Numbered from the stretch's first letter, positions 12,855 to 16,697 are shown. The stretch is DNA of 64,000 bases from Thermococcus sp. JdFR-02 (GCA_002009975.1 MTLP01000012.1:128001-192000), one strand, 5' to 3'. Numbers and translations: made by a program. The notes: generated from the letters alone by a model not told the origin.

Positions 12855-14144
12855 CTAAGCTCTTCCTCTTTTTCTCTTTCCAAATTTTAGCTTGGCTGTC
12901 AAAACTTTCTCAGTTGAGAAGAATTTTGCCGTGATGTAGAGTGTTATCAGTGTTATGACACTTAAATAGGCTATTCCAAAATACATTTGGCTGTACTGTT
13001 GCATCAACATAGCTCTTGAGGCTAAAATTGGGTGTGTGAATGGTAAAGCCAGCAATATGGATTTTATTGCAGTTGGGAGTGTTTCTAAGTCTGCAAACAT
13101 TAGGATAAATGAGGGGAAGAGCAGGGGCATTATACTCATGCTGACCAAAGTAGTGGCACTTCTAACATCTTCTGCAAACACTGAGAGGAGCATAGATATA
13201 CTTAGGGCAAAGACTATTGCCAAGAACAAGCTTAAAGCAAATAGGAAAGCTCCTTTTGGCGTTATACTTAAGCCTAGATCTTCCAATGATATGCCTATTT
13301 CTGAAGTTTGTGGAGTCAGCGAGCCGATATAGTACTTCATACCAATCATGTAGGCTATTGATGATATTAAAGCAACTCCCGCAGTGCCTATCATTTTTCC
13401 AGCAATTATAGTTATCCTCTTCACAGGCAACGTTAAGAGAGTTTCGAGGGTTTTATTTTCCTTTTCTGCTGCCATTGTTGTCGCAGCCATTTGGCTTACG
13501 TAGGTTATCATTATGAAAAGCACTAATGGTATTGAGAAAGCTTGCGAAAATATGATTCCAGAAACTACAGAAGGTGGAACTTCCACGATTCTACCTTTTA
13601 TTATGGAATAGCTCTTCGCTTCAATTGGTTTTAGTATTGCCTCTGGATCCCCTTGAACATTTTGCTCTATCTTCAATTTTGCTAAATATTCATTCAAAAC
13701 TTGGACAACCGCGTTAATCCTTCCTTCACTCATCCCTTCTCTCATTCCAGCACTTATGCCCTTGAAGATTGCATAAACTTCCACGTATGTTTTCTCGTTG
13801 CTACTTATCTTTTGAGAAAAATCACTTGGAATGACAACTACAACATTATAATCTTTTTCTCCCGCTTTTTTAATAGCTTCTTGAAGATCTTTAGCCTGAA
13901 TTTGAGTTACAGTAACGTTTGGAGCTATCTCGAGGGATTTTACTAAAAGACTCCCATACTCACCTTTGTCAAAATTGACCAGAACAACTTTAGTCTCTTC
14001 TTGGGCTTGTTCTATCCCAATCTGCATCATTTGTCCCAAGGCTGGGAAGAGAATTAAGGGCAAAATTATCATTCCAAAAATAATCTGCTTATTCCTGAGC
14101 AAATCTTTTATTTCTTTCTTTACAATAATCCAAAAGTCACTCAT
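12855..14144 (-). CDS. ABC-2 type exporter permease (NatB-like)
   Basis: IVKKEIKDLLR start, large extracytoplasmic loop, EKENKTLETLLTLPV, 6 TM. Confidence 0.9.
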   Translation of the reverse strand: MSDFWIIVKKEIKDLLRNKQIIFGMIILPLILFPALGQMMQIGIEQAQEETKVVLVNFDKGEYGSLLVKSLEIAPNVTVTQIQAKDLQEAIKKAGEKDYNVVVVIPSDFSQKISSNEKTYVEVYAIFKGISAGMREGMSEGRINAVVQVLNEYLAKLKIEQNVQGDPEAILKPIEAKSYSIIKGRIVEVPPSVVSGIIFSQAFSIPLVLFIMITYVSQMAATTMAAEKENKTLETLLTLPVKRITIIAGKMIGTAGVALISSIAYMIGMKYYIGSLTPQTSEIGISLEDLGLSITPKGAFLFALSLFLAIVFALSISMLLSVFAEDVRSATTLVSMSIMPLLFPSFILMFADLETLPTAIKSILLALPFTHPILASRAMLMQQYSQMYFGIAYLSVITLITLYITAKFFSTEKVLTAKLKFGKRKRGRA

Positions 14145-14145
14145 T

Positions 14146-14886
14146 TCACTCACCACCTGCTGATACCCTAATTGCTCTCATAAAAACTTCTTCTAAGTTC
14201 TTTGCTTCGTATTTTTCCTTGAGCTCTCTTGGGCTCCCGATTTCGATGATAACGCCCTCGTTAATTAAGGCAACTTTGTCACAGAGAAATTCAACCTCAA
14301 GCATATTGTGACTCGAAACGAGAAATGTAACTCCTTCATTCCTTGCAAAGCTTTTAATGGTTTGTCTGATGGAATATGCGTTTATTATATCAAGACCACT
14401 CGCGGGTTCGTCTAAAATAGCTAACCTAGGCTTTACCATTAAAGCCCTCGCTAAAAGTAATTTACGTGTCATTCCTTTTGAGTAAGTTGAAACTTTGTCA
14501 TAAAGTCTGTTTCCTAAATCACTAATCTCCTTTCCAAGTTCAAGCATTTCTTCAACACTTTTTCCAGTTTTTGCATAGAGTTTAGCCATGAATTCGAGAT
14601 ACTCATAACCTGTTAAATTTTTATATGCTCCCGCTTCTTCAGGGAGATAGCTTATTAGCTTTCTAACATTATCAGCTTGTTTAACAACATCTTTTCCAAA
14701 AACCTCGGCTTTTCCAGCAGTTGGGAATAAAAGCGTCGCTAAGATTCTTAAGGTGGTGCTCTTTCCAGCTCCATTTGGTCCAATGAGACCAAAAATTTCC
14801 CCCTCTTTAACTTCAAATGAGATTCCCTTCAGAGCTTTAACTTTCCCGTAATCCTTCTCAAGCTTTTCAACTCTTACTGCTGGCAT
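14146..14886 (-). CDS. ABC transporter ATP-binding protein
   Basis: Walker A GPNGAGKST, signature YSKGM, Walker B ILDEP, SSH. Confidence 0.95.
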   Translation of the reverse strand: MPAVRVEKLEKDYGKVKALKGISFEVKEGEIFGLIGPNGAGKSTTLRILATLLFPTAGKAEVFGKDVVKQADNVRKLISYLPEEAGAYKNLTGYEYLEFMAKLYAKTGKSVEEMLELGKEISDLGNRLYDKVSTYSKGMTRKLLLARALMVKPRLAILDEPASGLDIINAYSIRQTIKSFARNEGVTFLVSSHNMLEVEFLCDKVALINEGVIIEIGSPRELKEKYEAKNLEEVFMRAIRVSAGGE

Positions 14887-14888
14887 TT

Positions 14889-15086
14889 TTAATCACCCTC
14901 ATAGATAAACACATCCTCAATTTTGACTCCAAAAAACTTTGCTATCCTGAAGGCTAACCTAAGCGAAGGGTCATACTTTCCTTTTTCAATTGATATTATG
15001 GTCTGCCTTGTAACCCCTAGAAGCTTTGCAAGTTCCTCTTGAGTTAGTCCTTTCCACTCTCTGAGTTCTCTCAGTCGGTTTTTCAA
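14889..15086 (-). CDS. XRE/Cro-family HTH transcriptional regulator
   Basis: [32 protein letters not shown] start overlapping the upstream stop. Confidence 0.92.
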
Positions 15087-15478
15087 ACCTCATCACCCTT
15101 AAAGAATTTGTAATACGTTAGAAATCCTAGATAAATCAACATCCATAGCGTTATTGCTGGAAAGAAATATTTAACTAAAATCTGATACTCTGGATTCTTC
15201 TCTTTCATTGAGGCAATATATGCAAATATTATTGTGATAACGACCAGATATACATTTACAGCCATGCTTTCTGTTTTTTCTCTAATTCTCTTCTCTTTTT
15301 CACTTTCTTCAATCCCAGAGATTTTCATCCCTACATATAATATTACAAAAGCAGTAATAATCGAACCAACTGCTCCTATTGGGTCTTGTGACTTTATGAA
15401 ATACACTGCTATAAAAGCAAACGCAATCATCGCTGTAAAAGTTATAAACCAAATTCCGAAGCGATTTATTTTTGGCAT
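15083..15478 (-). CDS. Small membrane protein, divergent DUF2178-like
   Basis: 4 TM; degenerate (D)ExExRIxxK motif; YYK near C-terminus; part of tandem array. Confidence 0.7.
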
Positions 15479-15949
15479 TTACATCACCCGCGAGTAGTAG
15501 TGCCTTAAAGATATATGAATTACAGCAATTGCAGCGAGCAGAACACCTGTTAAAACAAATGCGCTTTTAAGTTCTGGTCTTTTAGTGGAGGCAATTGAAA
15601 GATACACAAGAGTAAGGGATAGTCCTATTAAAACTACTTGTAAAGTCCTTCTTGCGGCAATTTCTTCAATTCTAAGCGTTCTCTCGTCTTCAAGAATATA
15701 TCCCTTCTTTCTTAAGTGATCAGAATACAGCTTCATAAGAACAAAGCCAACTATGAATACAGCAAATGCCAATGGAGGATTGTTCTTGCTAATTGCCCAC
15801 CCTAGGAAGTAGCCCATTGTCATGACTATCATCACTGGAGGAATTAATGCTCTCTTCTCTTCATCAGACTTTCTTGTTGTGTAAAGTAAGATACTTATGA
15901 TAGCAACAATTAGTGTCCAGAGGATCGTTCCCATGAGAAGTTCGTTCAT
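15479..15949 (-). CDS. DUF2178-like membrane protein
   Basis: EDERTLRIEEIAARRTLQ motif; ends YYSRVM. Confidence 0.85.
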   Translation of the reverse strand: MNELLMGTILWTLIVAIISILLYTTRKSDEEKRALIPPVMIVMTMGYFLGWAISKNNPPLAFAVFIVGFVLMKLYSDHLRKKGYILEDERTLRIEEIAARRTLQVVLIGLSLTLVYLSIASTKRPELKSAFVLTGVLLAAIAVIHISLRHYYSRVM

Positions 15950-16315
15950 TCACATCACCTTTGAATAATAGTACTGTGAGGCAATCAAAACAAGAGCTCC
16001 AGCTACAAGGGGAATTAACAACCAATCTGGAGATATTTTGAGGTCTTTTGTTGTCAGCCAAGCATATTGGGCAAAGAGTATTATACTCATAACAAAGTAG
16101 CTGTTCCTTGCACTTTTAGCTTCGATAAGTTCTGTCCTTTCATCTGAGACCGTTTCAACATTTAAATTGTAGTATCTGTTAAGCAAATAACTAAAGAAAG
16201 TTCCCAGAGCAAGGATTACAAGTGCTAAGATTGGATTTTTGATCTCAAAAGAATAAGATATGCCGATTATCATTCCAGCGATAATTAGTCCTAATGCGAT
16301 TGTGTAATATCGCAT
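15950..16315 (-). CDS. DUF2178-like membrane protein
   Basis: SDERTELIEAKSARNS motif; ends YYSKVM. Confidence 0.85.
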   Translation of the reverse strand: MRYYTIALGLIIAGMIIGISYSFEIKNPILALVILALGTFFSYLLNRYYNLNVETVSDERTELIEAKSARNSYFVMSIILFAQYAWLTTKDLKISPDWLLIPLVAGALVLIASQYYYSKVM

Positions 16316-16316
16316 C

Positions 16317-16613
16317 TTACATCACCTTTCCATAGTGTATTTCAAGAACTGTAGGTACGAGAAGTGATATTATATTCAATGAAGCAAGCATGGAGAATAT
16401 CTGGAGAGGCAATGTTTTTATAGCAGCGTAAAATGCAAACACTGTTGTCAGAATTTGCAAAATTTGAAGTGTCCTTTTAGCTGATAACAGCTCAATATAC
16501 TCTGCACGCTCGTCTTTCAAAGATCCTAAGTGTCTTCTCTTTTTATGTACTAAATATCCGCCAAGAGCTGTAAAAAAGAGTACAATGAAGTAGTATTTAA
16601 TCACTGGAGACAT
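16317..16613 (-). CDS. DUF2178-like membrane protein (short)
   Basis: KDERAEYIELLSAKRTLQ motif; ends HYGKVM. Confidence 0.8.
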   Translation of the reverse strand: MSPVIKYYFIVLFFTALGGYLVHKKRRHLGSLKDERAEYIELLSAKRTLQILQILTTVFAFYAAIKTLPLQIFSMLASLNIISLLVPTVLEIHYGKVM

Positions 16614-16625
16614 TCACATCACCAT

Positions 16626-16657
16626 GTAAAGTTTCCTTTACGTAAAGTTTACTTTAC
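16626..16657. promoter_or_regulatory. Tandem palindromic operator 2x GTAAAG-N4-CTTTAC
   Basis: gtaaagtttcctttac (16626-16641) followed directly by gtaaagtttactttac (16642-16657), between the minus-strand TATA (CTTATATA about 16660-16670) and the first DUF2178 start. Confidence 0.8.
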
Positions 16658-16697
16658 ATCTATATAAGCTTTGTGGGTATGTTAAAAAGAGACATGA

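Follow-up and report, generated by a model that had tools for sequence, protein, structure and literature searches.

Several described bacterial systems pair a small membrane protein with a transcriptional repressor. In CylR1/CylR2 of Enterococcus faecalis, according to the passages of the source that deal with it (PMC3709268), induction requires CylR1, a protein with three predicted helices that is believed to pass on the signal by a mechanism that is not known; the spread of the pair beyond the cytolysin cluster is described as unexplored in the section of another source that mentions it (10.1101/2024.08.13.607848). SdpI/SdpR of Bacillus subtilis is presented, in the part of the paper that concerns it, as an autorepressed two-gene operon in which the polytopic membrane protein SdpI sequesters SdpR upon binding of the external signal, thereby inducing its own synthesis, and an ArsR-type regulator is reported there to be homologous to SdpR (PMC2910880). 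A third pair, YoaS-YozG of Bacillota, has upstream inverted repeats that are read as autoregulatory operators in the extract of the preprint that covers them (bioRxiv 10.64898/2026.09.15.751765). Here we describe an operon in a stretch of 64,000 nucleotides (nt) from the archaeon Thermococcus sp. JdFR-02, hereafter the window, that encodes four small membrane proteins of the DUF2178 family, an XRE-type helix-turn-helix protein resembling CylR2 and an ABC-2 exporter, and that is probably autorepressed. The function of DUF2178 is not known, and the family name was not found in the literature that we searched.

The XRE protein of the operon resembles CylR2 over its full length, its residues 3-63 aligning to residues 4-64 of the 66-amino-acid (aa) CylR2 (1utx; E 2.7e-14), which is among its closest solved structures together with 9k3w, a 65-aa protein of the PbsX family (E 1.5e-17); no literature on 9K3W was found. 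Gene arrangement is also similar. The gene cylR1, which codes for 94 aa with three predicted membrane helices, is directly upstream of cylR2 and its stop codon abuts the cylR2 start, and in the window a gene for a small polytopic membrane protein is directly upstream of the XRE gene and coupled to it by a 4-nt overlap. CylR1 carries the sequence KKDER right after its first helix, a layout like that of the three-helix DUF2178 types called C and D below. Finally, a perfect 12-1-12 inverted repeat (L096:569-593) is found in E. faecalis just before the ribosome-binding site of cylR1, which is the position of the operator in front of the first gene of our operon. The two systems differ in that the cyl regulators are divergent from the toxin operon and respond to a lanthipeptide, whereas the window has its output genes in the same operon, four membrane paralogs and an archaeal promoter, and no peptide gene was found in it. 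The repeats differ as well, being of the form 12-1-12 there and 6-4-6, present twice, in the window.

The likeness to the other pairs is one of organization. YoaS-YozG also combines a small membrane protein of unknown function with a small XRE repressor in one operon, but the membrane protein belongs to DUF2975, not DUF2178, and in the extract at hand neither paralog arrays nor an exporter are described, the pair being noted only as a conserved intergenic feature. SdpI/SdpR similarly forms a self-contained pair of membrane protein and autorepressor, and its logic would explain the stand-alone DUF2178-XRE modules presented below; in contrast, its families are called unrelated here, set apart by the description given in the relevant part of the paper, and its gene order is reversed. 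A literature search on XRE proteins, membrane proteins, anti-repressors and ABC transporters yielded nothing relevant, and the passages retrieved from two Thermococcus transcriptome papers were not tied to this operon.

Seven open reading frames (ORFs) on the minus strand of the window span positions 12855-16613 (Table 1), and we name the four DUF2178 genes D1 to D4 in operon order. A first-pass annotation had proposed one tightly packed operon with gaps of 0-2 nt or overlaps, and the ORF listing places each ORF at the coordinates that it gave. The successive junctions measure +1, 0, 0, -4, +2 and -11 nt, the largest gap thus being 2 nt. D2, D3 and D4 scored 38.3, 59.0 and 23.4 bits against PF09946 (DUF2178), above the Pfam gathering cut-off of 22.8 bits, and D1 scored 18.8 bits, below it. 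We also used a hidden Markov model (HMM) of 56 family members from other genomes, which excludes the window proteins but contains orthologues of each paralog type. It matched all four proteins with E values of 5e-13 to 7e-41 at Z=2000, including D1 at 46 bits. D1, D2 and D3 carry the motif DER-x3-I-x3-(S/A)A, which has decayed in D4, as first annotated. At curated cut-offs, no Pfam family except DUF2178 was found for D1-D4. D2-D4 match 8xMP (PF24838) weakly, all below its cut-off, and a literature search for 'octameric membrane protein' gave nothing on that Pfam family. No further DUF2178 match above the Pfam cut-off was found elsewhere in the genome.

The remaining three proteins match other families. 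The XRE protein consists of a single HTH_3 domain (73.7 bits), and the ATPase and the permease match ABC_tran (102 bits) and ABC2_membrane_3 (135.5 bits), respectively. With an ABC_tran ATPase gene directly ahead of a gene for an ABC2_membrane-type permease, the pair has the layout of ABC-2 exporters, and the drrA-like ATPase, the family of the permease and the large loop after its first helix are shared with DrrAB/NatAB-like transporters; residues 49-205 of the permease match PDB entry 3cni. Unlike described members, however, the window proteins score below the curated NCBIfam cut-offs, with 238 bits against 312 for the ATPase (TIGR01188, drrA) and 142 bits against 435 for the permease, whose match to NF041647 (ABC_perm_CPBP) covers the permease part only. 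Therefore, no named subfamily or substrate can be assigned. PADLOC contains no family for D1-D4 or the permease, and what it matches in the XRE protein and in the ATPase is a generic domain in each case.

Analysis of the region upstream of D1 revealed two abutting 16-bp palindromes located 3 nt downstream of a putative TATA box and 12 nt upstream of the D1 start codon. On the minus strand, the sequence from the stop codon of an upstream 78-aa ORF to D1 reads AAAGCTTATATA GAT GTAAAGTAAACTTTAC GTAAAGGAAACTTTAC ATGGTGATGTGA ATG. Forty loci of the family were compared, i.e., the window, 21 mapped relatives and 18 more returned by searches, out of 70 family genomes with a match. Both palindromes are exact in 36 of them, three others have one exact copy, and only a one-mismatch copy is present in the last. 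The 17 loci that could be oriented by a strict TATA pattern gave the consensus AAAnnTTTATAAGG-ATGTAAAG-gAaa-CTTTAC-GTAAAG-GAAA-CTTTAC-ATGGTG. In the aligned related loci, the consensus AAAnnTTTATAAG/CTTATATA occupies the TATA position at an equal distance from the operator, and the ribosome-binding-site stretch CTTTACATGGTG is kept. The role of the TATA element follows from the architecture of archaeal promoters, in which TATA boxes are centred approximately 26 nt before the transcription start, and archaeal repressors bound just downstream of the TATA box block recruitment of the polymerase. On this basis, the two operator sites would extend from about -19 to +13 and so overlie the expected start of transcription. 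When as many as two mismatches are tolerated, the operator pattern has six matches in the window, a number reached by 26 of 100 shuffles; as the loose pattern is no rarer than chance, the weight is on the two exact abutting copies and their conservation.

Table 1. Features of the DUF2178-XRE-exporter operon and its promoter; coordinates are positions within the 64,000-nt window.
Feature	Position	Strand	Remarks
Putative TATA box TTATATA, preceded by an A-rich stretch resembling a B recognition element (BRE-like)	16661..16667	-	sequence; position common to related loci
Operator 1, palindrome GTAAAG-TAAA-CTTTAC (minus-strand reading)	16642..16657	.	exact copy; kept in related loci
Operator 2, palindrome GTAAAG-GAAA-CTTTAC, adjoining operator 1	16626..16641	.	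exact copy; kept in related loci
Ribosome-binding site GGTGAT	16618..16623	-	4 nt before D1 ATG
D1, DUF2178 paralog, three helices	16317..16613	-	98 aa; type D
D2, DUF2178 paralog	15950..16315	-	121 aa; type B
D3, DUF2178 paralog with additional N-terminal helix	15479..15949	-	156 aa; type A, most widespread type
D4, DUF2178 paralog without DER motif	15083..15478	-	131 aa; type E
XRE/Cro-C1 helix-turn-helix protein, CylR2 type, presumed autorepressor	14889..15086	-	65 aa
ABC ATPase, DrrA/ABC-2 type	14146..14886	-	246 aa
ABC-2 permease, large loop after first helix	12855..14156	-	433 aa

The presence of a conserved double operator between the TATA box and the first gene makes autoregulation, which the first-pass annotation had also proposed, likely. 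Sequence comparison provides good support for an autorepressed operon in which the XRE protein would act as repressor at the operator and ABC-2 transport would be the output, and we infer that the double palindrome is what the XRE protein binds. In the sequences compared, recognition helix and operator change together. The helix VTRQTIIAIEKG of the XRE proteins of the family (whose genera are labelled g2 to g6 here, g8 and g9 being other genera) is paired with the operator GTAAAG-N4-CTTTAC, and the helix VTRQTINSLEQG of genus g9 is paired with TGTAA-N8-T(T/G)ACA, two TGTAATATATTTTT(T/G)ACA sites flanking the TATA box in that genus. A third helix, VRRETI(V/L)FLEKG, found in g8 and in a second module of the JdFR-02 genome, goes with TGTTA-N8-TAACA, and two abutting ATGTTA-N-TAACA sites are present in both cases.

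The 2.36-Mb genome contains three exact single operator sites, two of which form the double palindrome of the operon. When one mismatch was allowed, 14 matches were obtained compared with 12 per strand for the pattern read backwards; sites of this kind are near background, and hence only exact sites were counted. Upstream of the third exact site (G000:C3:5100-5115, G000 being this genome), at a distance of 18 nt, is a TATA-like TTTATAAG, and a start codon follows the site after 13 nt, a placement that corresponds to that of operator 2 at the main promoter. The gene behind it codes for a 316-aa protein with an ABC2_membrane_2 domain (120.3 bits; locus L069:2601-3580), has no adjacent ATPase gene, and has several paralogs nearby on contig C3. 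This site is kept before the orthologous permease gene in all three sampled g5 genomes (G004, G009 and G014). In the best-match loci of g3, g4 and g6, no site with at most one mismatch was found, and two g2 loci have a one-mismatch site, the meaning of which is unclear.

To compare the locus with its relatives, about 12 kb around the match was taken from 21 genomes of the family and from nine loci (eight genomes) of other families of the class, and genes were mapped by phmmer and an iterated HMM. DUF2178 was found in 22 of 24 sampled family genomes at E <= 0.05, and in 69 of 79 family genomes of at least 90% completeness at E <= 1e-6. The order of one or several DUF2178 genes, XRE, ABC ATPase and permease on one strand recurs in all 22 mapped family loci, the window included, with a permease match of only 119 aa in one of them, which is more than expected by chance. 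The median identity between the window and the 21 related loci is 86% for the XRE protein (79-89% identical across the family), 80% for the ATPase and 67% for the permease, compared with 47% for D2, 45% for D3, 35% for D4 and 33% for D1. DUF2178 as a protein family has 1183 representatives in a set of 1.84 billion clusters (E <= 0.001), and 139 of the 150 best representatives carry DER.

The interval between the XRE and ATPase genes, of 2 nt in the window, measures 100-670 nt in many relatives. An ORF of at least 40 aa was called in it at 12 of the 21 related loci, and each of these ORFs is a membrane-protein gene on the same strand, no such additional gene being present in the window. The gap gene codes for a 115-123-aa membrane protein without a Pfam family in g2, for an Rce1-like CPBP protein in g4 (PF02517, 59.6 bits), and in g5 for a membrane peptide some 55-60 aa long. 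Loci with such genes, representing g4, g2 and g5, are L037:5317-6045, L042:7073-7771, L035:6664-7023 and L050:6638-6820, and by eye the g5 peptide is similar to the C-terminal half of the protein found in g2. At the other end of the operon, the 78-aa ORF (16698-16934, minus strand) is located between a MiaB-like gene and the operon promoter and has the same place in genus g5; it scores 16.8 bits against the Lrp/AsnC ligand-binding domain, below the cut-off, and has no DNA-binding domain.

The number, order and identity of the DUF2178 genes vary across relatives, and the content is thus not an invariant set of four. Among the 22 mapped loci, six have one DUF2178 gene, 11 have two, three have three and two have four; 18 further loci with short flanks comprise three with one, 12 with two, two with three and one ambiguous case. 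We distinguish five types with labels of our own: A (130-173 aa), B (about 122 aa), C (99 aa), D (90-98 aa) and E (without DER). The order in the window is D-B-A-E, without type C, and the sets of other genomes are A alone, A-C, B-C, A-B, A-B-C, D-A, D-A-E, A-E and B-E. Both the alignments and a quick maximum-likelihood tree of 60 proteins, with Shimodaira-Hasegawa approximate likelihood-ratio test (SH-aLRT) support only and long-branch warnings, place each window paralog nearest to genes of other genomes and not to its siblings. Among D1-D4, identity over long alignments is only 24-28% (D1 and D3 are 45% identical over 38 residues). The nearest relatives of D2 are 120-122-aa genes of other genomes that are up to 50% identical, and those of D3 are 155-162-aa genes, its orthologues being up to 57% identical. 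The tree joins D1 to a 96-aa gene of G010 (support 98) and puts D4 into a clade of seven proteins that lack the motif (support 99). By these comparisons, the paralogs are old types that were differentially retained, not recent duplicates. The first-pass annotation had suggested that specificity is tuned by gain or loss of cassettes, a view that is sustained as regards content, with one to four genes of at least five types, but not if it is taken to mean fast local duplication.

The layout expected of DUF2178 proteins, three or four membrane helices with DER on a basic loop after the second (or first) helix, is seen in the alignment, except that D4 lacks DER. An AlphaFold2 model of D3, with a predicted local distance difference test (pLDDT) score of 88.9, has helices at residues 2-24, 36-54, 58-81, 89-123 and 125-155. 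Loops 25-35 and 82-101 of D3 are rich in Lys and Arg, and by the positive-inside rule the DER helix and the C-terminal tail would therefore face the cytoplasm. These are also the best-conserved parts: in type A (n=17), the majority-residue fraction is 0.79 at residues 82-101 (the DER helix) and 0.77 at residues 147-156 (the tail), compared with 0.50-0.58 in the membrane helices. A Foldseek search with the D3 model gave no match in the PDB at E <= 0.001, and the ESM Atlas returned only the family itself and weak unnamed clusters. A predicted complex of D3 residues 36-156 with the XRE protein scored 0.00, in a run without controls that carries no weight either way.

The association of DUF2178 with XRE regulators, already pointed out in the first-pass annotation, extends beyond the family. 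Pairs without an exporter occur in two other families of the class (the nine loci mentioned above), on contig C37 of this genome and on haloarchaeal plasmids, which indicates that the tight link is that between membrane protein and repressor. The C37 module (L115:428-1068), which is the second module with a different double operator referred to above, consists of a gene for a 133-aa DER-bearing membrane protein (ERDERTRKI) and an overlapping XRE gene whose product is 61% identical to the window's XRE; the membrane protein was missed by the Pfam DUF2178 model and scores 41.6 bits with the purpose-built HMM. An 83-aa ORF with two CxxC pairs follows this module. A tblastn search revealed XRE relatives in 1011 plasmid records, and in eight of nine inspected neighbourhoods a gene for a small membrane protein abuts or overlaps the XRE gene. 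Two haloarchaeal partners are DUF2178-like, with FDERD, those of Clostridium estertheticum and Bacillus licheniformis bear DER and score 29.8 and 17.7 bits with our HMM, and the partner on the E. faecalis plasmid is CylR1. On the Staphylococcus aureus plasmid, a divergent small membrane-protein gene is found instead.

What comparison of sequences establishes is the operon structure, the conservation of the operator, the resemblance between CylR2 and the XRE protein, and the fact that the paralogs are old and subject to turnover. How the operon might work is a question of interpretation, and we give about an even chance to an autorepressed switch with the DUF2178 proteins as the input of the repressor and the exporter as the output. 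The XRE protein, probably as two dimers, would bind the two abutting palindromes downstream of the TATA box, over the expected start, and thereby block expression of the four DUF2178 genes, its own gene and the ABC-2 exporter. As the repressor has no sensor domain, its input would most likely come from the co-encoded membrane proteins. When the variable membrane part of these proteins meets a membrane-associated signal, their conserved cytoplasmic regions, the DER helix and the C-terminal tail, would either retain the repressor or let it go. The same logic has been proposed for CylR1 acting on CylR2 and reported for SdpI acting on SdpR. Upon derepression, more DUF2178 protein and more exporter would be made and, in this genome, also more of the second ABC-2 permease encoded elsewhere. 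From this analogy and the missing sensor domain of the repressor, we infer that the DUF2178 proteins represent its membrane input, and they might also be protective like SdpI. That the signal is an antimicrobial peptide or an envelope stress is speculative; the only hints are the CPBP (Rce1-like) gene in the operon of one genus and the likeness of the permease to permease-CPBP fusions.

Several observations weigh against this switch. In five g9 genomes, exact operator copies are found only at the module's own promoter, so that the DUF2178 protein and the repressor are the only regulated products, an arrangement as compatible with cargo or immunity as with sensing. The DER motif is missing from D4 and the other type E proteins. 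Moreover, in three g6 loci (L044:7294-7674, L048:5629-6009 and L051:6467-6805) the type E gene is upstream of the operator and is followed by A, A-D-C or similar sets, and no operator was found in the 150 nt upstream of the type E gene in G010 and G015, where E is the first gene called; the type E paralog of g6 may thus be made constitutively while the other paralogs are repressed. The kinship of DUF2178 with CylR1 is also uncertain. Pfam finds nothing in CylR1, hhalign gives a probability of 6% over 13 columns around DER, and the CylR1 scores of 12.1 and 10.8 bits with our HMMs are reached by 8 and 13 of 211 reversed decoys, respectively, and by 0 and 1 of 500 shuffles. A large protein search returned five near-identical CylR1 relatives and tblastn of plasmids found CylR1 only in Enterococcus, at 95-100% identity, which precluded building a CylR1 profile. 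In addition, the partners encoded on Deinococcus, Arthrobacter and Sphingomonas plasmids show no likeness to DUF2178. As regards expression, contigs from four metatranscriptome runs (one sample, one study), 95-99% identical to the stretch, are compatible with co-transcription, a weak point in favour of the switch: the X1 contigs cover the whole operon, one of them (14279-15474) bridging the ATPase, XRE and D4 genes. However, another X1 contig (15490-16760) continues upstream across the promoter into the upstream gene, and DNA carry-over is possible. X2 has no RNA contig over the promoter (16615-16673), a gap that carries no weight. Within D3 (15775-15779), the RNA-library contigs also lack one base and, 4 nt away, have one base extra; the frame shift is thereby compensated, and one or two residues differ.

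The DUF2178 proteins could be the cargo of the regulation and not its input, that is, small protective or immunity membrane proteins or accessory subunits of the exporter. The XRE protein would then be a simple autorepressor, either adjusting the amount of these proteins or responding to another input. The stand-alone g9 modules are in keeping with this possibility, as are the fast divergence and variable copy number of the DUF2178 genes; CPBP proteins are linked to bacteriocin immunity, and a CPBP gene is found in the g4 operon, the permease itself resembling permease-CPBP fusions. Nevertheless, a helix-turn-helix protein of 65 aa is too short to include a domain for ligand binding, conservation is highest in the cytoplasmic parts, which is unexpected for proteins that meet only an external agent, and the occurrence of DUF2178 with XRE and without the exporter in other lineages argues against an obligate transporter subunit. 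We thus regard cargo as the sole role of these proteins as possible but rather doubtful, and both roles can hold together, as for SdpI.

It is improbable that the locus consists of two unrelated units, a DUF2178-XRE module and an ABC-2 exporter with its own function (e.g., ion or lipid export), without common control. Such a division would account for the long XRE-ATPase intervals of many relatives and for the modules that exist without an exporter, but the 12 of 21 gaps with a called ORF hold a same-strand membrane-protein gene and no spare promoter space, the interval is 2 nt in the window, the order is kept in 22 of 22 loci, and the same operator precedes the second ABC-2 permease gene. That operator also speaks against a toxin-antitoxin or addiction pair in which the membrane protein would be the toxin, the XRE protein the antitoxin and the exporter a mere neighbour, as do the presence of the operon in 69 of 79 family genomes, the maintenance of up to four paralogs together, the absence of mobility genes among the genes labelled at the mapped loci, and the lack of any match of D1-D4 to a toxin or defence family in Pfam, NCBIfam or PADLOC. 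A toxin-like gene in first position and overlapping stop and start codons are common in such pairs, the best NCBIfam match of the XRE protein is the Y4mF/HipB-type antitoxin family (TIGR03070; 47.5 bits, below the cut-off of 71.65), and its relatives are frequent on plasmids (1011 records); even so, we consider this explanation very unlikely.

For the switch with DUF2178 proteins as input and the exporter as output, a broader and frankly tentative extension can be considered, namely, that DUF2178, CylR1 and similar small membrane proteins together with 65-aa repressors of the CylR2 type represent an old, phosphorylation-free transmembrane signalling device common to archaea and Firmicutes. The cytoplasmic DER helix would capture or release the repressor directly, and arrays of divergent paralogs such as that of the window would serve as receptors for different membrane-active ligands that converge on one operator and one exporter. 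The archaeal group includes species reported to be genetically tractable, and natural variants of the operon with one to four membrane partners make the control of a sensorless repressor by membrane proteins directly testable. CylR1/CylR2 controls a toxin of clinical weight, and according to the source that treats it (PMC3709268), how its signal passes across the membrane is not understood; the operon described here looks like a conserved relative of that pair, one whose operator is sharply defined and whose output is clear. For this archaeal family, it would also be a first candidate for efflux under the control of a signal.

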